Sequence record: MZ648215.1 | Direction: 5' to 3' (one strand) | Length of the DNA: 39,577 bases | DNA from: Escherichia phage vB_EcoP_IMEP24 | In this document: positions 5,592-39,577 of the stretch, in pieces | Layout of the letters: every line of letters starts with the position of its first letter | Numbering within the stretch: position 1 is the first letter of the stretch | Notes under the pieces: generated by a model | Told to the model about the DNA's origin: nothing | Databases searched by the model: none | Seen by the model: only the letters and a program-made list of their open reading frames with translations | Position numbers and translations under genes: made by a program

Positions 5592-6065
5592 ATGTTCGGT
5601 AAGTCAAAACTTGAAGCACAAATCGAGGAGTTGAGCATGAAGGTGGTATGTTTGAAGCGAGCCGTAGAGGTCCGGGACAAGGACAACGAGCGGCTGAAGG
5701 ATAAGCTCGCTGAAGCCGAGCGTAAGCGCCTAACGCCACCAGCGGCTGTAACCCTCAAGCGTATGGTCGGCATCAAGTTCAAGGCGCTGTTCGATGGTAA
5801 GTATCAGCCCACTGAGTTCAAGATAGGTCTTGGCAAGTGTGGGAAGGTGGTCAACTACTTCGAGGTGACTAAGCGTGAAGACCGGACGCTTACCATTCAC
5901 CAGTATCACACAGACGGGTCGTCTAAGGACTTCGAGTACCGACTCGGAGACATCGACGGTCGCATCCAGTATGACTACGAGCTGATGCAAGTCTACGGCG
6001 AGGAGGCAGAACGTGAGCGAGCGATTCAGGCATTCATGCAAGTAAGACCTCGCATCGTCATCTAA
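5592..6065 (+). CDS. Hypothetical protein (157 aa), coiled-coil N-terminus
   Basis: ORF; stop TAA is embedded in the downstream phage promoter; no recognised similarity. Confidence 0.55.
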   Translation: MFGKSKLEAQIEELSMKVVCLKRAVEVRDKDNERLKDKLAEAERKRLTPPAAVTLKRMVGIKFKALFDGKYQPTEFKIGLGKCGKVVNYFEVTKREDRTLTIHQYHTDGSSKDFEYRLGDIDGRIQYDYELMQVYGEEAERERAIQAFMQVRPRIVI

Positions 6066-8771: not shown

Positions 8772-9470
8772 ATGGCTAAAGAGCAACTGAAGACTTTCAC
8801 CACTCCGGTAGCTGGTATCGTTGAGCCGTACGCATGGCTGAACAAAGCAGACACCAAGTTTAACGAGCGTGGTGAGCATAAGGTTAACCTGACATTCGAC
8901 CTGAGCAACCCGAAGGTCCGTAAGATGATTGATGTCTTACAGAAGATTCACGACGATGCGTATGCGAAAGCACTCGCAGACCACGAGAAGAACCCACCTC
9001 AGGTTCAGCGTGGCAAGAAGCCTATTGAACCACGAGAAGGCGACATGCCGTGGATTGAGAATGGTGACGGTACTGTTACCCTGAAGTTTAAATGCTTCGC
9101 GTCTTACCTGAAGGATGGTAAGTCAGAGCCTATCGTATTACGGTTCTACGACACCGATGCTAAGTTAATCCGTGACGTCCCGAATATTGGCGCTGGCTCC
9201 AAACTGAAGGTCAAGTTTAAAGTCCTGCCGTTCAAGTGGAACGCTGCGACTGGTGCAAGCGTTAAGCTCCAGCTTGAGTCCTGCCTTCTGGTAGAACTGA
9301 AGGAGTGGAAAGGGGATGGTGCTGGTGGAGATGGTGGCTGGGGTGATGATGAAGACCTCGGTACTGGCTACAAAGCGTCAACCGATGGTGACTTCGGGTC
9401 TGATGACTTTGGTGACGATGGTTCCGAAGGCGGTGACGACTCCAACTCTGGTGGCGATTACGACTTCTAA
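8772..9470 (+). CDS. Single-stranded DNA-binding protein gp2.5
   Basis: MAKE...AEPYAW, GDMPWxxNGDGT, SKLKVKFK..VKLQLESxxLVEL, acidic C-terminal tail ending DYDF, as in T7 gp2.5. Confidence 0.93.
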   Translation: MAKEQLKTFTTPVAGIVEPYAWLNKADTKFNERGEHKVNLTFDLSNPKVRKMIDVLQKIHDDAYAKALADHEKNPPQVQRGKKPIEPREGDMPWIENGDGTVTLKFKCFASYLKDGKSEPIVLRFYDTDAKLIRDVPNIGAGSKLKVKFKVLPFKWNAATGASVKLQLESCLLVELKEWKGDGAGGDGGWGDDEDLGTGYKASTDGDFGSDDFGDDGSEGGDDSNSGGDYDF

Positions 9471-9922
9471 TGGCCCAATGGTCTGCAAAACGGGGGCACT
9501 CTGTGGGTGCCTACCGCTCTGGACTTGAAGCCAAGAACCAGCAGTGGCTGGAACAGAACGGCGTCAAAGCGGAGTACGAAAGCCATTATATCAACTATGT
9601 GATTCCGGCTTCCGACCACAAGTACACACCAGACTTTATCCTTCCTAACGGTATCATCGTGGAGACCAAAGGTATCTTCGATAGTGATGACCGTAAGAAG
9701 CACCTTCTGGTACGAGAACAGCACCCAGAGTTAGACATCCGGTTCGTGTTCTCAAGTTCCCGCTCCAAGTTATACAAAGGGTCCCCGACCACGTATGGCT
9801 CATGGTGCGAAAAGAACGGCTTTAAGTTTGCCGATAAGTTCATCCCGGTTGAGTGGCTGCGAGAGGTGACTGTACGTCTGCCTTCTGGTATACTCATTCC
9901 CAAGAAGAAAGGAGTTAAGTGA
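9470..9922 (+). CDS. Endonuclease I (Holliday junction resolvase, T7 gene 3)
   Basis: YVIPASxHxYTPDFxLPNGIxVETKG, DDRKKHLLxREQHPELDIRxVFSSSRxKLYKGSPT matches T7 endo I. Confidence 0.95.
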   Translation: MAQWSAKRGHSVGAYRSGLEAKNQQWLEQNGVKAEYESHYINYVIPASDHKYTPDFILPNGIIVETKGIFDSDDRKKHLLVREQHPELDIRFVFSSSRSKLYKGSPTTYGSWCEKNGFKFADKFIPVEWLREVTVRLPSGILIPKKKGVK

Positions 9923-12837: not shown

Positions 12838-13386
12838 ATGGAGGGTTCCATTCTAATGAGAAACTTAATCAACGGTAAGACTCTGACAGAAGTACAGCAG
12901 GTCCTTGGACCGAAGGAGGGCCTTGAGTCCTTCACTTCACGCTGCACTGGTCGGACGTTAGCTCGAGCACTACTGTTCATTTCTACAGTCATGACTCATG
13001 GTTCTCTCGACCTGAAGCCACTGCGCGGTAACTTGGGAGACCAAGAGATTGACTTGGTGAAATTCCAGATTAACCAACGTCTGGACCAGATGGGACTCGT
13101 TGGGTTCTCATGGTCTGGCGACGTTCTGAATTACTACCCGTTCGAGGAGTATCAAGATGTTAAAGAGATTGTACGTGAAGTTAAAGTCGAAGTATCACCT
13201 TTCAATGGGGAAATGGTGGCACCAAGAAGCTATGGTGTTGAGCAACATTCTGAAGGACCAGCGATTCACGTCGAAAGCGTGGAACAAAGCTACCCAGAAG
13301 TGCGCGTATCATCTAGCAAGAGTGCAGTAGTTGGTGAGATGGAAGTCTTGGAACCTCTGGTCCCGGACATGACTCCACCAGCTTAA
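12838..13386 (+). CDS. Hypothetical protein (182 aa; alternative start 12856)
   Basis: ORF in the gene 4.x slot; SD ggaggg favours ATG at 12856; no recognised similarity. Confidence 0.5.
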   Translation: MEGSILMRNLINGKTLTEVQQVLGPKEGLESFTSRCTGRTLARALLFISTVMTHGSLDLKPLRGNLGDQEIDLVKFQINQRLDQMGLVGFSWSGDVLNYYPFEEYQDVKEIVREVKVEVSPFNGEMVAPRSYGVEQHSEGPAIHVESVEQSYPEVRVSSSKSAVVGEMEVLEPLVPDMTPPA

Positions 13387-13461: not shown

Positions 13462-15633
13462 ATGTTTGACCTTAAGGATATTTGGGGTTCGGACATCGAG
13501 ACCAACGGTCTCCTTGACACCGTGTCCCAGTTCCATTGTGGGGTCCTGATTAATGCCGAGTCGAATGAGACCCTTAAGTATGGGGTAGCGCCGATGGTCG
13601 GTATCATCGGTGGCTTCAAAGAGTATGTGCAGAAGGTGGAAGAGATTGCTGCAACGCCTACAGGTATGCTTGTCTTCCACAACGGTATCAACTATGACGT
13701 CCCTGCTATTGACAAGCTGAAACGTCTGTACTTTGGGAAACGCTTTAACTTCCCGAAACACAAGATGATTGATACCTTGGTGCTGGGCCGCTTGATGTAT
13801 CCCAACATTAAGTTCTCAGACATGGGAGCGGTGAAAGCTGGTCGTCTGCCACCTAATATGATGGGACGTCAGTCTCTTGAGGCTTGGGGTTATCGTCTCG
13901 GTGAGATGAAGGGTGAGTACAAACACGATTACGTTGCCAAGTGCAAGGCTGAAGGTATCGAATATAAGGCTGGGGACGAATGGTTGTTCCCGTCTCAGGA
14001 GATGCTGGACTATAACGTTCAAGACGTTGTGGTCACACTGGCGTTGTTCAAGAAGTTCCTGACTGACAAGTATTACTTCCAGTCTGAACAGTTCGCTTTC
14101 GAACAGATTTATGCGTTGCGTCTGGAACATGATGCTGCGTGGACCTGTGCGAAGATGGAACGTAACGGCTATCCGATGAACACCGAGATGGTCGAAGGCT
14201 TATATCGTGAACTCACCGTCAAACGTGCAGAGTTGCTGGACAAGCTGCGTTCGACTTTCGGTAGCTGGTATGCACCAAAGGGTGGCAAGGAGTTCTTCAG
14301 GCATCCACGGACAGGCAAGGACCTTCCGAAGTATCCACGAGTCGTGTATCCTAAGGTAGGGTCAGTATTCAAGAAGCCGAAGAACAAAGCTCAACGCTTA
14401 GGTCTGGAGCCTTGCGAGTTCGACTCACGAGACACGATGGAAGGAGCACCATTCACGCCAATCACTTACGTTGAGTTTAATCCGGGAAGCGGAGACCACT
14501 TAGCGAAAGTCTTGATGGAGCGTGGATGGGAGCCTGTAGACTTCACTGACACCGGGAAACCTGTAGTCGATGACGAGACGTTAGAACACGTTAAGTTACC
14601 AGACGAAGAGGCTCAGGCTTGCGTAGAGCTGGTCCGTGAGTATCTGGTAGTCCAGAAGCGCATCGGTCAGGCGGCTGAAGGTAAGAACGCATGGTTGAAA
14701 CTTGTAGGTCCAGACGGACGTATGCACGGTTCAATCAACCCATGCGGTGCAGTAACCGGACGTGCGACCCATAGTTCACCAAACATGGCTCAAGTCCCGG
14801 CTAACGGTGCTCCATATGGTGAGACCTGCCGCGGTGCTTTCGGTGCAGCGTGGAACAAGAAGGACGGCGAGCCAGACCCTTGGATTCAAGTGGGTGTGGA
14901 TGCCTCAGGTCTTGAGCTTCGTTGTCTGGGGAACCGAGCGGCCCCGTTTGATGGTGGAGCCTATGCGAAGACTGTGGTCGAAGGTGACATCCACTGGGCC
15001 AACGCAGTAAACGCTGGGTTAGCACCCAACGTCCCACGCGATAAGTCTAACCACGACCATGAGGCTTTCCGCAACAACGCTAAGACGTTCATCTATGCGT
15101 TCCTGTATGGTGCAGGGGCCGCTAAGATTGGACTGATAGTAGGAGGTGGTAAGAAGGAAGGTTCAGCTCTCATGAAGAAATTCATTGAGGGTACACCAGC
15201 CATCAAGGACCTCAGGGAAGCTGTGAGTAATACGTTAATCTCAGACTCTAAGTGGGTAGACGGAGAGAACATCGTCAAGTGGAAACGCCGTTGGTTGCGT
15301 GGACTTGATGGTCGCCGTATCCACATCCGGTCGCCACACTCAGCACTGAACGCCTTACTTCAAGGTGACGGTGCGGTAGTCTGTAAGCACTGGATTGTTG
15401 AGACTGAACGTATGCTCGAAGAGGCCGGGTATGTCCACGGCTGGGAAGGAGACTTTGCGTACATGGCATGGGTCCACGACGAATTGCAGATTGCAGCTCG
15501 GAACATGGAGATTGCCGAAGATATTCGCAGAATTGCTCAACTTGCTATGCGTAAGGTGGGTGAGTTCTATAACTTTAAATGTGTCCTTGATACCGAAGGT
15601 AAGATTGGACCAACGTGGAAGGAGTGTCACTAA
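13462..15633 (+). CDS. DNA polymerase (T7 gene 5)
   Basis: DIETNGLL exo motif, FHNGxxYDVPA, YNVQDVVVT, GSWYxPKGG, PNGAVTGRATH, DASGLELRCL, NAKTFIYxFLYGAG, YMAWVHDE; collinear with T7 gp5. Confidence 0.97.
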   Translation: MFDLKDIWGSDIETNGLLDTVSQFHCGVLINAESNETLKYGVAPMVGIIGGFKEYVQKVEEIAATPTGMLVFHNGINYDVPAIDKLKRLYFGKRFNFPKHKMIDTLVLGRLMYPNIKFSDMGAVKAGRLPPNMMGRQSLEAWGYRLGEMKGEYKHDYVAKCKAEGIEYKAGDEWLFPSQEMLDYNVQDVVVTLALFKKFLTDKYYFQSEQFAFEQIYALRLEHDAAWTCAKMERNGYPMNTEMVEGLYRELTVKRAELLDKLRSTFGSWYAPKGGKEFFRHPRTGKDLPKYPRVVYPKVGSVFKKPKNKAQRLGLEPCEFDSRDTMEGAPFTPITYVEFNPGSGDHLAKVLMERGWEPVDFTDTGKPVVDDETLEHVKLPDEEAQACVELVREYLVVQKRIGQAAEGKNAWLKLVGPDGRMHGSINPCGAVTGRATHSSPNMAQVPANGAPYGETCRGAFGAAWNKKDGEPDPWIQVGVDASGLELRCLGNRAAPFDGGAYAKTVVEGDIHWANAVNAGLAPNVPRDKSNHDHEAFRNNAKTFIYAFLYGAGAAKIGLIVGGGKKEGSALMKKFIEGTPAIKDLREAVSNTLISDSKWVDGENIVKWKRRWLRGLDGRRIHIRSPHSALNALLQGDGAVVCKHWIVETERMLEEAGYVHGWEGDFAYMAWVHDELQIAARNMEIAEDIRRIAQLAMRKVGEFYNFKCVLDTEGKIGPTWKECH

Positions 15634-15932: not shown

Positions 15933-16138
15933 GTGAATACTTACGGGTCCTAGCGGCCCTTAAGTCCTGCCCGAAGACCTTCCAGTCCAACTATGTGCGC
16001 AACAACGCTGCACTTGTGGCTGAGGCTGCGAGTCGTGGACATCTAAGCTGTCTGTCTATGGATGGGCGTAACAATGGTGCGTGGGAGATTACCGCTGCTG
16101 GCACCAAGTTCCTGAACCAACATGGAGGATGTCTATGA
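15929..16138 (+). CDS. Gene 5.7 protein
   Basis: VLxAxKSCPKTFQSNYVRNNAxLVAEAASRGHxSCL..GAWEITAxGTxFL matches T7 gp5.7; 69 aa. Confidence 0.85.
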   Translation: MSEYLRVLAALKSCPKTFQSNYVRNNAALVAEAASRGHLSCLSMDGRNNGAWEITAAGTKFLNQHGGCL

Positions 16139-16446
16139 GCAATCCTGTAGACCGTATTGGTAATCGACTCAATGTTGGTGATTCCGTCATCTACGTTGGG
16201 GCTGGCTACACAACGCTAGAGCAAGAGGTCATCACTAAGATTAATGACAAGACTGTAAACCTTGGTGATAAGTCTCAGTGGGGTTCCTACACTCGCCGTC
16301 CATTCAACAGCGTGCTAAACCTTAGTGCCATCGAAGAGTTGGTAAAACGCTCCGATAAACTAGCTGCTCTTGAAGCTGGCGGAGTTGACAACTGGGAAGG
16401 ATACGGGTGGTGCTTCGAGGGTGAGGAGGATGAAGACGATGAGTGA
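16135..16446 (+). CDS. Hypothetical protein (103 aa) with acidic C-terminus, gene 5.9 position
   Basis: ATG overlapping 5.7 stop (ATGA), RBS ggagga; C-terminus EGEEDEDDE; positional analogue only. Confidence 0.5.
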   Translation: MSNPVDRIGNRLNVGDSVIYVGAGYTTLEQEVITKINDKTVNLGDKSQWGSYTRRPFNSVLNLSAIEELVKRSDKLAALEAGGVDNWEGYGWCFEGEEDEDDE

Positions 16447-22603: not shown

Positions 22604-23170
22604 ATGGCTCAATACATTCCACTGAATTCTAACGATGACTTAGACGCCATCAACGATATGTTAGCAGCTATCGGTGAACCAGCAGTCCTACAGCTTGACG
22701 AGGGGAACGCTGACGTCTCGAACGCTCAACGTATCCTGCATCGTGTCAATCGTCAGGTCCAAGCTAAAGGCTGGAACTTTAACATCAACGAAGCTGCTGT
22801 CCTGACACCTGATGTCCAAGACAATAGGATTCGATTCTTGCCGTCATACCTTCGTGTAATGACCGCTGGGGCCACCAGCTACTACAGCAACATGGGTGGA
22901 TACCTGTACGACCTGTCCACTCAGTCAACCACTTTCACCGACCCCATCACGGTAGAGCTTGTGGAGATGAAGCCATTCTCCGAGATGCCTGTGGTCTTCA
23001 GGGACTACATCGTCACTAAAGCTAGCCGTGAGTTCAACGCTAAGTTCTTCGGTAGCCCAGAGTCAGAGCTATACCTTCGTGAGCAGGAAGCAGAACTCTA
23101 TCAGCAGGTTATGGAGTACGAGATGGACACTGGTCGCTACAACATGATGTCTGACATCGGGAGGGACTAA
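22604..23170 (+). CDS. Tail tubular protein A (T7 gene 11)
   Basis: IGEPxV, ANAxRILxxxNRQxQxxGWxFNI, YIVTKASRxFN, FFGxPE, MEYEMD match T7 gp11. Confidence 0.92.
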   Translation: MAQYIPLNSNDDLDAINDMLAAIGEPAVLQLDEGNADVSNAQRILHRVNRQVQAKGWNFNINEAAVLTPDVQDNRIRFLPSYLRVMTAGATSYYSNMGGYLYDLSTQSTTFTDPITVELVEMKPFSEMPVVFRDYIVTKASREFNAKFFGSPESELYLREQEAELYQQVMEYEMDTGRYNMMSDIGRD

Positions 23171-23397
23171 TGGCTAGTCACAACCTGAAGATTCACCGCC
23201 AGCACTTTGGTCCGGTACAGCTAGGTCTAAAGACAGCAGAGCTGAGACTTAACGACCGGGACTTTAAGGTTGGCGATTGGCTTATCCTGAATGAGTGGGA
23301 CAACGGGTATACTGGACAACAGGTAGCGCGTAAGGTTGTCCACATTGCTGACGTTGGTGACATCGCTGAAGGATACGTCCTAATGAGTATGATTTAA
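23170..23397 (+). CDS. DUF3850/ASCH-like small protein (75 aa)
   Basis: HxLKIxxxxFxxVxxGxKTxExRxNDRDFKVGDWLILNEW pattern recalled for DUF3850; start overlaps gene 11 stop (TAATG); RBS gggaggg. Confidence 0.6.
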   Translation: MASHNLKIHRQHFGPVQLGLKTAELRLNDRDFKVGDWLILNEWDNGYTGQQVARKVVHIADVGDIAEGYVLMSMI

Positions 23398-35457: not shown

Positions 35458-35693
35458 CTAAAAACCATCAAATATCAAAGGCTCTGATGGTTCCCATCTC
35501 TTTACTCTGACTACTGATGACGTAACTGTTAAAGACGTTAATGTGGTTACGACCCTTACTGCTGCCTCTGTGCCATTGGAGTCCTGAACCGGGTAGAGGA
35601 TCGAATGTTGTGGAGGTAGAGGCGAACTACACGCTGACCAACGTATGGTAACAACTTTGGGTCACGGACGACCCGCTTTAAACTGGAGGTTTT

Positions 35694-35888
35694 ATGATTG
35701 AGTTAGACTTCAAGAATGAGGTCCTTAAAGCCTCTCCTATCGTCGGGACCGCTGCGGCTGATGGTGCCAGTCGGTTCTTCTTCGGACTTACACTGAACGA
35801 ATGGTTCTACGTTGCAGCTATCGCGTACACCGTTGTCCAGATTGGTGTGCTAGTCTACAAAACGATTAAAGGAGGTGGTAAAACATGA
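35694..35888 (+). CDS. Class II holin (T7 gene 17.5)
   Basis: LDFxNExxKAxPIVGT, FFGLxLNEWFYVAAIAYTVVQIG matches T7 gp17.5; RBS ggagg. Confidence 0.92.
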   Translation: MIELDFKNEVLKASPIVGTAAADGASRFFFGLTLNEWFYVAAIAYTVVQIGVLVYKTIKGGGKT

Positions 35889-36148
35889 CGCAGATGGACT
35901 TAGAGAAGTTCCTCTTAATGCTAGATACTGAACGTGCTCGACTCATGCTGCAAGACCTGCGGGATGACACTAAGCGTTCACCTCAGCTCTACAACGCCAT
36001 TGAGAAGCTACTTGCTCGTCACAACTTTGTGTTAAGCAAGGTGTCTGTGGACGAGAAGACGCTGGCTGATATGGAGGCCCTGAACGCAGAGTACGATAAG
36101 GTGCTTTCAGCGACTGAGGATAATGACACCGGGTATGGCGTTCAATAA
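35885..36148 (+). CDS. Terminase small subunit (T7 gene 18)
   Basis: FLxMLDT, RRSPQLYNAIxKLLxRH match T7 gp18; ATG overlaps holin stop. Confidence 0.85.
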   Translation: MTQMDLEKFLLMLDTERARLMLQDLRDDTKRSPQLYNAIEKLLARHNFVLSKVSVDEKTLADMEALNAEYDKVLSATEDNDTGYGVQ

Positions 36149-36151
36149 GTG

Positions 36152-36190
36152 TTAGACTCAAGGTCATCGTCAGGTGGCCTTTATGATTAA
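36152..36190 (+). other. RNase III-type processing hairpin (R18.5-like)
   Basis: TTAGACTCAAGGTCAT..GGTGGCCTTTATGATTAA; third copy of the box. Confidence 0.5.
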
Positions 36191-36204
36191 CATTAGGAGG
36201 GTTT

Positions 36205-36480
36205 ATGACTAAGATAATGGAACGCAGAGCTGCCTATTATAAGCAGGTATACAAGGTGGACTTACAGACTCTAATTGGTATTCTAAAAGAGCAGGGAGGC
36301 TATGAGATATGTGGAAAGAGTATCTCTTTTGAAGGTGCAAAGGTAACAGCTCGCGTGGACCACTGCCACTCTACTGGAGCTATACGTGGTATTATATGCA
36401 ATAGGTGTAATCAGGCACTTGGTATGTTTGGAGATAACGTAGAGGGCATCTACAAGCTCTTAGCATACCTAGGCAAATAG
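36205..36480 (+). CDS. Endonuclease VII-like HNH nuclease (91 aa)
   Basis: DHCHSTGAIRGIICNRCNQALGMFGDN is the His-Me finger motif of the T4 endo VII family (DHDH..G.VRGLLC..CN..G); RBS taggaggg. Confidence 0.75.
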   Translation: MTKIMERRAAYYKQVYKVDLQTLIGILKEQGGYEICGKSISFEGAKVTARVDHCHSTGAIRGIICNRCNQALGMFGDNVEGIYKLLAYLGK

Positions 36481-36490
36481 GAGGGCAACT

Positions 36491-36940
36491 ATGCTCGAAT
36501 TTTTAAAGAGAGCGGCTCCGTGGTTACTTGCAGCAGTGATGTTTGCTGGTGGCTACCACACCGCTAACAATAAGTGGGAGGCTAAGGTAAATGCAGAATA
36601 TACCTCGAACCTTAAGGCATCGGAGGATACAAGGCTTGCTGTCCAAGCTGAAGTCAACAAAGTGTCCAAACGGTTTCAGGACGAAATGTCCTCGCTGGAA
36701 GGCAGCACTGATAGGATTATTGCTGACCTTCAGTCTGACAATAAGCGGCTGCGCATCCGAGTCAAACCTACGAGTGGAACCACGCAAAGTGACGGTCGAT
36801 GCGTCATTGATGGTTACGCCGAACTTGACGAACGAGATGCTAAACGTCTTGTCGCCATCGGACTAAAAGGAGATAAATGGATTAAGGCACTTCAGGACAC
36901 TGTGAGAGCCTTGCAGCAAGATAAGGAGGTGACGCATTGA
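36491..36940 (+). CDS. Rz-like i-spanin (T7 gene 18.5)
   Basis: MLEFL N-terminal TM, [24 protein letters not shown], DxRDAKRL, WIxALQDTxRxLQ match T7 gp18.5. Confidence 0.92.
36591..36866 (+). CDS. Rz1-like o-spanin lipoprotein embedded in +1 frame of Rz (T7 gene 18.7); true start probably internal
   Basis: [25 protein letters not shown] lipobox-like signal and SLMVxPNLTxEMLNV match T7 gp18.7. Confidence 0.75.
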   Translation: MQNIPRTLRHRRIQGLLSKLKSTKCPNGFRTKCPRWKAALIGLLLTFSLTISGCASESNLRVEPRKVTVDASLMVTPNLTNEMLNVLSPSD

Positions 36941-38700
36941 GTAAAGACTTAGTGGCGCGTCAGGCGCTAATGACTGCCCGTATGAAGGCAGACTTCGTGT
37001 TCTTCCTGTTCGTTCTATGGAAAGCTCTGTCACTCCCAGTCCCGACTCGCTGTCAGATTGACATGGCGAAGAAACTATCGGCTGGGAACAACAGGCGTTT
37101 CATCCTACAGGCGTTCCGTGGTATCGGGAAGTCCTTCATTACGTGTGCCTTCGTGGTATGGAAGCTATGGAATAACCCAGACTTGAAGTTCATGATTGTG
37201 TCGGCCTCAAAGGAACGAGCCGATGCGAACTCCATCTTCATCAAGCGAATCATCGACCTCATGCCTCAGCTTCAGGAACTAAAACCTAAGCAGGGACAAA
37301 GGGATGCTGTTATCAGCTTCGACGTTGGGCCAGCCAAGCCAGACCACTCACCCTCGGTTAAGTCCGTTGGTATCACTGGTCAGTTGACTGGTAGTCGTGC
37401 TGACATCCTGATTGCCGATGACGTGGAGGTTCCTAACAACTCTGCTACTCAGGCTGCGCGAGACCGTCTGTCAGAGCTTGTGAAAGAGTTCGACGCTATC
37501 CTGAAGCCGGGAGGTACAATCATCTATCTGGGTACTCCTCAGAACGAGATGACACTGTATCGTGAGCTTGAAGGTCGTGGGTATACCACTACTATCTGGC
37601 CAGCTCGTTATCCACGCGACAGGAAGGACTGGCAGTCTTACGGAGACCGTCTGGCTCCTATGCTTCAGGCAGAGCTTGAAGAGGACCCTGAGTCCTTCTA
37701 CTGGCGTCCGACTGATGAAGTACGCTTCGATGACACTGACCTGAAGGAACGTGAGCTGTCCTATGGTAAAGCTGGCTTCGCTCTACAGTTCATGCTTAAC
37801 CCAAACCTGAGTGATGCTGAGAAGTACCCTCTGAAGCTCCGTGACCTTATCGTAGCTGACTTGGACCCAGCGTCCAGCCCAATGGTCTACCAATGGTTGC
37901 CGAACCCTCAGAACAAGCGTGAGGACGTTCCTAACGTTGGACTTATGGGTGACTCATACCACACGTATCAGACTGTAGGTTCTGCCTTCAGCTCGTACAC
38001 CCAGAAGATTCTGGTAATTGACCCTAGTGGTCGTGGTAAGGATGAAACTGGTTATGCGGTACTGTATCAGCTCAACGGCTACATCTTCGCTATGGAAGTT
38101 GGTGGTATGCGTGGTGGTTATGAAGACTCTACGCTGGAAGCCTTGGCTAAGATTGGTCGTAAGTGGAAGGTCAACGAATACGTCATTGAGGGTAACTTCG
38201 GTGATGGTATGTACCTTGAGCTATTCAAGCCTGTAGCGGCCCGTATCCATCCTGCGGCTGTAACTGAAGTGAAGAGTAAGGGTCAGAAAGAACTCCGCAT
38301 CTGTGACGTTCTGGAGCCTATCATGGGGTCTCACCGACTTATCGTTAACGCTGCTGCTATCGTCCAAGACTACCAGACAGCCTCTGACAAGGATGGTGTG
38401 CGCAACCCTATCTATTCTCTCTTCTATCAGATGACCCGTATCTCTCGCGAACGTGGGGCCTTGGCACATGATGACCGACTTGATGCGCTGGCTATCGGTG
38501 TACAGTTCTTCGTTGAGTCTATGGCGAAGGATGCCAACAAAGGCGAACGTGAAGTCACTGAGGAGTGGCTGGAGGAACAGATGGAGAACCCACGGAAAGG
38601 CTTCGAGTCCATCCACACTGAGTTCTGGGACAATGGGGTCCGGGTAACTCATGATACGGACGACGAGCTGGGACTAGGGTCATACGTTACGTTCCACTAG
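36937..38700 (+). CDS. Terminase large subunit (T7 gene 19), TTG start
   Basis: [26 protein letters not shown], [16 protein letters not shown] (Walker A), [16 protein letters not shown], [20 protein letters not shown], [38 protein letters not shown]; collinear with T7 gp19. Confidence 0.96.
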
Positions 38701-39393: not shown

Positions 39394-39577
39394 TCTCACA
39401 CTTCAAGAACCTCAAGTCTCCCCCATAGGCCCTCTTTCAGTCCAGACCAAGGGTGGCCCACCTCCAGTCTATCATAGGGTTGGACCGGCTGTCAATATCT
39501 CAAGTCAACGATTGGTCATGACTATCGGTGGTGGTGGTGACGATAGGTTGGGACTATTGGTCTGTCTCTGAGTCTTT
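39394..39577. repeat. Right direct terminal repeat (184 bp)
   Basis: Identical to 1..184. Confidence 0.9.

Follow-up and report, generated by a model that had tools for sequence, protein, structure and literature searches.

For the open reading frame at 36205-36480 of Escherichia phage vB_EcoP_IMEP24, the best explanation is a homing endonuclease gene that is free-standing and belongs to the 'DHHRN' (Endo VII-motif) branch of the His-Me/HNH superfamily. It is carried by a cassette of about 0.3 kb that would have settled in the spacer between genes 18 and 18.5, after an R18.5-like hairpin. From the comparative sequence analysis presented here, this explanation has been assigned a probability of about 0.7. 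In its best reading, the nuclease is an ordinary mobile passenger and not a packaging factor, and the cassette fits a known type of homing endonuclease and overturns no current understanding.

Genome and locus organization

The window analyzed is the whole stretch of 39,577 nt of the sequence record MZ648215.1, which contains the genome of a K1F-like podovirus (Autographiviridae, Studiervirinae, Kayfunavirus). The genome is collinear with that of K1F, and its first 25 kb display about 94% identity to Hafnia phage yong1 and E. coli phage P762. Direct repeats of about 184 bp are located at both ends, indicating that this is a complete T7-type linear genome. The features relevant to the nuclease locus are the following:

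1-184 and 39394-39577: direct terminal repeats, about 184 bp.
9470-9922, + strand: gene 3, T7 endonuclease I, a Holliday-junction resolvase (PF05367 Phage_endo_I, E=2e-81).
35885-36148, + strand: gene 18, gp18 small terminase, left neighbor outside the cassette (PF11123, E=3e-12; phrog_1351, E=1e-34).
36148-36194, + strand: two-stem hairpin with an internal loop, directly 3' of the gene 18 stop codon (-17.2 kcal/mol, z=-3.75).
36196-36201, + strand: GGAGGG, Shine-Dalgarno sequence of the nuclease ORF, separated from the ATG by 3 nt; cassette boundary on the left.
36205-36480, + strand: Endo VII-motif (DHHRN-type) nuclease ORF with ATG start, 91 aa, putative free-standing homing endonuclease gene in slot '18.2'.
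36480-36485, + strand: GGAGGG, Shine-Dalgarno sequence of gene 18.5, sharing one base with the end of the nuclease stop codon; cassette boundary on the right.
36491-36940, + strand: gene 18.5, Rz i-spanin, right neighbor (phrog_1327, E=3e-60; PF17531, E=2e-26).
36591-36866, + strand: 18.7, Rz1 o-spanin, embedded in gene 18.5.
36937-38700, + strand: gene 19, T7-type large terminase (PF22530 Terminase-T7_RNaseH-like, E=6e-38; PF03237).

The position between the gp18 small terminase and Rz/Rz1, already recognized when only the letters of the sequence had been read, was confirmed, as was the absence of a counterpart in T7, where gene 18 (end at 36822) and gene 18.5 (start at 36917) have no coding sequence between them. 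A paralogue of the nuclease elsewhere in the window was not found by tblastn. Scans for sigma-70 promoters and terminators produced chance-level matches only.

Several other ORFs of the window have also been compared with K1F. A 75-aa protein with a DUF3850/ASCH domain (PF12961, E=2e-19) is encoded at 23170-23397, between the tail genes 11 and 12, and K1F lacks it. The ORF at 16129-16446, between genes 5.7 and 6, codes for a protein with an N-terminal part corresponding to phrog_2251 and a C-terminus matching the T7 gp5.9 RecBCD inhibitor (PF25708, E=1.6e-13); this segment is missing from K1F. Two further proteins, one of 157 aa similar to T3 gp1.05 (5592-6065, PF25755) and one of 182 aa assigned to phrog_18700 and without Pfam match (12838-13386), are absent or replaced in K1F.

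Family assignment of the 91-aa protein

The nuclease matched the Pfam family PF02945 (Endonuclease_7) through residues 25-89 with E=1.2e-14 and 54.4 bits, the curated gathering cut-off of the family being 23.6 bits. This was its sole Pfam match, and the classical HNH Pfam family was not matched. Seven PHROG 'endonuclease VII' families were also recovered (best E=3.5e-19). A profile search of the PDB carried out with the nuclease and its homologues retrieved Hpy99I (E=5.9e-9) and T4 Endo VII (E=3.7e-6); the alignment with Hpy99I reaches the C-terminus of the nuclease, and that with T4 Endo VII is limited to T4 residues 15-71. In view of these Pfam, PHROG and PDB matches, the assignment to the Endo VII family stands. 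The sequence-only reading had proposed an Endo VII-type nuclease of the His-Me/HNH superfamily and had made this identity depend on an HNH or Endo VII match in profile searches; Endo VII matches were obtained, the Pfam one above the cut-off. The core peptide that it quoted, DHCHSTGAIRGIICNRCNQALGMF, is present in the nuclease as residues 52-75, and the Endo VII motif spans residues 33-69 of the 91. Judged by these comparisons, the predicted product of the ORF is a bona fide Endo VII-family protein in which all five catalytic-site residues are present.

Active site and the change of Cys33 to Tyr

An AlphaFold2 model calculated from an alignment of 11 sequences was too poor for fold comparison (pLDDT 53, pTM 0.39), and for this reason the residues were mapped to T4 Endo VII from the profile-versus-PDB alignment (1e7d). 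Two features of the active site are relevant:

36301-36303, + strand: codon 33, TAT (Tyr) in place of TGT (Cys), first zinc ligand, from the alignment of homologues.
36358-36411, + strand: catalytic core D52-H53-x-H55...R61...C65-x-x-C68-N69, invariant in the family alignment, with residue roles taken from PMC6083498.

The residues D52, H53, H55, R61 and N69 correspond to D40, H41, H43, R54 and N62 of T4 Endo VII, and all five of these DHHRN residues are invariant across the family alignment. Concerning the zinc ligands, C36, C65 and C68 correspond to T4 C26, C58 and C61, and Y33 occupies the position of C23. The zinc-ligand feature (CX2-4C plus CX2C) is therefore incomplete in the IMEP24 copy, Y33-x-x-C36 and C65-x-x-C68, and the full set is found in the lineage, with Cys33 in 13/13 other copies (10 database homologues and 3 phage copies from GenBank). 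The Y33 variant is on record once, in the single assembly of vB_EcoP_IMEP24. The catalytic identity read from the letters was correct, except that the Tyr in place of the first Cys of the N-terminal CxxC had been overlooked.

In T4 Endo VII, the mutation C23S abolishes activity and DNA binding, and activity is likewise lost in the equivalent C84S mutant of F-CphI (Fang et al. 2018, PMC6083498). Since its first zinc ligand is Tyr and these equivalent mutants are inactive, the IMEP24 copy is probably inactive or badly destabilized by C33Y. The possibility that an inert remnant is present in IMEP24, with an intact ORF encoding a dead protein, is nested inside the homing explanation and is considered an even bet. 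The loss of an otherwise universally conserved ligand in a single record, together with the behavior of the T4 Endo VII and F-CphI mutants, fits a remnant, but only one substitution has occurred, with no frameshift or stop codon, and three Cys ligands are left, a situation to be compared with that of the T4 single mutants C26S and C58S, which stay active (PMC6083498). The TAT at codon 33 could be a real inactivating change or else a sequencing error. In the metagenomic contig L014 (3501-3776, protein P0003) another substitution, DHYH for DHCH (C54Y), coincides with a dN/dS of 0.3-0.5, elevated in comparison with the closest alleles, and this hints that individual nuclease copies may be decaying in more than one lineage.

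The family relationship with T4 Endo VII and the conserved catalytic residues also bear on a possible role as a second junction-resolving or debranching enzyme, which would trim branched DNA before packaging as T4 gp49 does, and late expression beside the packaging genes would suit such a task. This role is very unlikely, however, because the phage already encodes T7 endonuclease I (E=2e-81), the nuclease has 91 aa and aligns to T4 residues 15-71 of 157, so that the C-terminal part is missing, a restriction enzyme, Hpy99I, is a better match than T4 Endo VII, and the gene is optional among relatives. Furthermore, podovirus proteins of this kind have been placed in the 'endonuclease' and not in the 'resolvase' clade, and the podoviruses of the 'endonuclease' clade, which includes Hpy99I and F-CphI, all keep T7 endonuclease I (PMC6083498). 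The better match to Hpy99I would be in line with the 'endonuclease' clade. A separate Holliday-junction resolvase, a feature of phages hosting DHHRN-family genes, is present in IMEP24 as gene 3. GenBank lists the protein (UCR92087.1) as 'hypothetical protein', and UniRef gives it the name 'Recombination endonuclease VII'; the analysis has annotation value in that the automated name implies a resolvase and is almost certainly wrong.

Distribution of the nuclease gene

At the DNA level, the nuclease gene was detected in 3 of 50,697 phage records. The 1.5-kb region was matched by 415 records, mostly with 95-97% identity, and the gene was present in 3/415: the Salmonella phages CHRF_20120 and CHRF_10022 (98.6%) and the E. 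coli phage phiYIO1-1 (89.9%). The gene is missing from about 400 relatives whose genes for the small terminase, Rz and the large terminase are near-identical. Further metagenomic carriers were found in the protein database, a handful of them sharing 90-96% identity and another group 62-67%. The gene order gp18 / Endo VII / Rz is maintained in every carrier contig recovered, beside at least five different tail fiber or tailspike genes. The nuclease gene is optional among very close relatives, and its site is constant.

This distribution bears on the proposal, made in the sequence-only reading next to that of a mobile insertion, of a packaging accessory. Such an HNH-type protein would, in the manner of HK97 gp74, assist the terminase (gp18/gp19) in cutting concatemers. 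The gene is placed between the small and large terminase genes, and terminase-adjacent HNH proteins are needed for cos cleavage in HK97-like phages (Kala et al. 2014, summarized in PMC8861465 and in the abstract of PMC3592412). However, this partnership is reported for cos phages with Terminase_1 enzymes (PMC8861465), and IMEP24 has a large terminase of the T7 type (PF22530/Terminase_6N) and genome ends formed by 184-bp direct repeats instead of cos. In addition, the relatives without the gene have gp18, Rz and gp19 DNA 95-97% identical, the protein matches PF02945 and not the classical HNH family, and the IMEP24 phage was isolated viable with a copy lacking one zinc ligand. The packaging proposal is thus left unsupported and is regarded as extremely improbable. 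The gene 3 resolvase, the T7-type terminase and the 184-bp terminal repeats together disfavor both resolvase and HK97-style packaging roles.

The 18/18.5 spacer and the cassette junctions

The core of the hairpin located after gene 18, ACTCAAGGyC...TGGyCTTTATG, is conserved in T7, K1F, Kvp1 and PcaP1EGY, with equivalents at L004:2045-2095 (K1F) and L021:521-560 (T7). The coordinate of the T7 R18.5 site is taken here to be about 36856. T7 R18.5 is a strong RNase III site (bioRxiv 10.1101/106799). On account of its fold, its conservation and its position relative to R18.5, the hairpin at 36148-36194 looks like the counterpart of this site; an Rfam scan of 35500-37100 at E<=1 gave no match. The upper stem and loop are shorter in carriers (CATCGTCAGGTG) than in non-carriers (CATTACTATATGTAGTG), and the hairpin is foldable in both. 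The nuclease target or an immunity determinant might include this difference at the hairpin top.

In non-carriers, about 38 bp (ACTAGTGGAGGCGACTCTACGTGAAATCTGATAAACCG) separate the hairpin from the ribosome-binding site of gene 18.5. In carriers, this block is exchanged for GGAGGGTTTATG...AAATA, which comprises the nuclease gene and its own ribosome-binding site, and the sequence common to non-carriers resumes at the GGAGGG of gene 18.5 (36480-36485). The junctions, which were derived by anchoring on the gene ends since MAFFT placed the indel wrongly, are identical in all carriers. The comparison of insertion sites suggested from the sequence alone has therefore given a mixed outcome: the junctions are sharp and constant, as expected for a mobile element, but the event is not a clean insertion, because about 38 bp of native spacer have been replaced by the gene and the hairpin top differs.

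When seven carriers were compared with six non-carriers, the only fixed differences in the flanks were those at 36168-36173 (top of the upper stem and loop) and at 36186, and the allele-linked differences are confined to 36168-36480, that is, the gene and about 37 bp upstream. In the same comparison, no fixed differences were found in the holin gene, in gp18 or in the 2.1 kb to the right (Rz, gp19). Co-conversion tracts into the holin, gp18, Rz and gp19 genes were not observed, with no diagnostic sites outside 36168-36186, so that the pattern fits plain cassette recombination as well as nuclease-driven homing.

Evolutionary signals of the cassette

The left flanks of the carriers are most similar to phages that lack the nuclease gene: the flank of phiYIO1-1 is nearest to K1F (98.5%), that of the CHRF phages to ST64 (97.4%), and that of the window to ST31 and Baskent (97.9%). 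Between the window and CHRF, dS was 0.05 for the nuclease gene, 0.22 for gp18 and 0.11 for Rz, and between the window and phiYIO1-1 it was 0.51, 0.22 and 0.10, respectively, values obtained from small genes and subject to large sampling error. The GC content of the nuclease gene is 42.8% versus 49.9% for the genome, among the lowest 4.6% of windows. These data show a cassette that recombines independently of its surroundings, and this movement may be driven by the nuclease. Across the deep split (dS ~0.5), the dN/dS of the nuclease gene is 0.05-0.10, a sign of purifying selection and hence of a protein kept functional in the lineage as a whole.

Endo VII genes in other genera

The 18/18.5 slot also houses Endo VII genes in Berlinvirus Kvp1 (gene 18.2), in Pektosvirus PcaP1EGY (ORF37, re-called with 111 aa and its start at L007:1980) and in several metagenomic phages. 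The same-slot paralogues of Kvp1, PcaP1EGY and contig L010 are 43-63% identical to the window protein, and a Przondovirus paralogue is found in the 13.5 slot, between genes 13 and 14. A search of the literature on Kvp1 found nothing about gene 18.2. Between genera, the amino acid identity of the nuclease (43-46%) is roughly equal to that of gp18 and gp18.5 (42-48%).

The empty spacer of K1F-type phages, TAACTAGTGGAGGCGACTCTACGTGAAAATCTGATAAACC (L004:2094-2133), aligns in codon register at 32/40 positions with the end of PcaP1EGY ORF37 (L007:2282-2321), the last aligned codons being Y L E A V T L R K I stop, and the observed score was reached by 0/300 shuffles. The end of Kvp1 gene 18.2 (L006:1774-1800) aligns similarly with this spacer, and the T7 spacer keeps CTACGTGAAATCTGA (L021:586-600). 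Other members of the family end two or three residues past the conserved 'YL'. These similarities could mean that Endo VII homing genes have held the 18/18.5 slot since before the Studiervirinae genera split, the empty T7/K1F-like spacer being a deletion scar. The similar divergence of nuclease and flanks between genera leaves room for such an ancient occupant, a somewhat doubtful scenario under which the window-type allele would be a surviving, differently trimmed descendant and not a recent invader. As a flank-independent control, the 13.5-slot gene of IME205 was compared with the spacer and displayed no similarity, so that the similarity of the Kvp1-type genes can equally be explained by read-through. 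The reading favored is that in which the Kvp1-type genes would extend about eight codons into the native spacer.

Proposed homing mechanism

In the proposed mechanism, the nuclease gene would form part of the late (class III) polycistronic RNA, and its own GGAGGG, just 3' of the R18.5-like processing hairpin, would serve for translation. During a mixed infection with a non-carrier relative, the active Cys33 form would cut the empty allele, putatively in or near the hairpin or spacer sequence that the carrier allele has replaced (TTACTATATGTAG or the 38-bp spacer), and recombinational repair off the carrier genome would copy the cassette into the cut relative. The carrier allele would be immune, its own version of the target being changed or absent. 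The layout of the cassette limits harm, as the hairpin stays foldable and the stop codon of the nuclease abuts the ribosome-binding site of gene 18.5. C33Y would represent the decay expected of a homing gene once fixed in a lineage. The alternative of a mobile insertion, which had been put forward together with that of a packaging accessory, gains support from the polymorphism at a fixed site, the differences confined to the cassette, the decoupled divergence, the low GC content and the same-slot genes of other genera.

Some observations might weaken this explanation. Carriers are rare (3 isolates and a few metagenomic contigs), and an efficient homing element might be expected to spread. The divergence between genera, approximately equal to that of gp18 and gp18.5, would also fit an ancient vertical residence with repeated loss, and the strong purifying selection could alternatively reflect a function useful to the phage. 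A domesticated nuclease used in competition or defense, kept for damaging rival phages, host DNA or parasitic elements and not for copying itself, would account for this long-term selection (dN/dS 0.05-0.1, dS ~0.5) and for a slot occupied across genera with a divergence similar to that of its flanks. It is unlikely, given the rarity of carriers and the ligand-destroying change of the IMEP24 copy; moreover, ordinary homing also excludes rival alleles, and in practice both explanations overlap.

The locus offers a compact natural test system for Endo VII-motif homing. Alleles with an intact C33 stand beside the probably dead Y33 form, empty sites in near-isogenic genomes number in the hundreds, the slot displays two or three independent types of junction, and the adjacent RNase III-type hairpin shows one and the same difference between all carriers and the non-carriers. 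Kayfunaviruses are also phage-therapy candidates, and spotting dispensable selfish cassettes aids genome engineering and minimization.

HNH_3 homing endonuclease genes in Kayfunavirus

A second hot spot for homing endonucleases is found in Kayfunavirus at the 18.5/19 junction, where an HNH_3 gene is located between Rz and the large terminase in phiYIO1-1 (gp48, L002:2831-3214), yong1 (L017:4515-4652) and contig L016 (4214-4651). This gene has been described as polymorphic within one phage stock (PMC8861465). It is absent from IMEP24, where the ORFs of Rz and gp19 overlap directly. In K1F, the DNA polymerase gene is split by an intervening sequence with gp5.3 (HNH_3; L009:14931-15584); the polymerase gene of IMEP24 (13462-15633), compared at 15476-15531, is uninterrupted. 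The intron-encoded gp5.3 of K1F and the genes of the 18.5/19 slot were considered as members of the same family as the Endo VII ORF, and this was rejected, both being HNH_3.

Comparison with known systems

The closest relatives by position are Kvp1 gene 18.2 and PcaP1EGY ORF37, which lie in the same slot directly after the conserved hairpin and match PF02945 with E of about 1e-21. Their products have 111 aa and 43-46% identity to the window protein; they are extended at the N-terminus and end in a tail of 8-9 residues. In both genes the last codons are formed by the native spacer block CTACGTnnAATCTGA, which is no longer present in the window-type allele, so that the 3' junction differs.

The HK97 gp74-type HNH proteins are likewise small His-Me finger nucleases encoded beside terminase genes, but they belong to another Pfam family, have a Terminase_1 partner, occur in cos phages and are conserved and essential, and the window gene is optional. 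T4 endonuclease VII (gp49; PDB 1e7d/1en7) has the same zinc-plus-His-Me catalytic module, which made the residue-by-residue mapping possible. Unlike the window protein, it is a 157-aa domain-swapped dimer with a C-terminal domain, and it is a structure-selective resolvase essential for T4 packaging. Hpy99I (PDB 3fc3) is the best match among solved structures, and its alignment takes in the CxxC, the catalytic core and the C-terminal '..YL.K' helix; in contrast to the window protein, this bacterial type II restriction enzyme has 200 aa, extra N-terminal domains and a methylase partner.

With respect to F-CphI of cyanophage S-PM2, a member of the DHHRN family (PMC6083498), the window protein has a much shorter N-terminal region (about 30 aa before the motif) and no associated intron, its gene lies in an intergenic spacer and not beside a conserved target gene, and the first Cys is missing in the IMEP24 copy. 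Nevertheless, both systems have in common the D, H, H, R and N residues and, in the lineage, the two Cys pairs, seemingly placed towards the C-terminus of a small phage protein; both genes are free-standing and not intron-encoded, and in both cases the phage keeps a separate resolvase.
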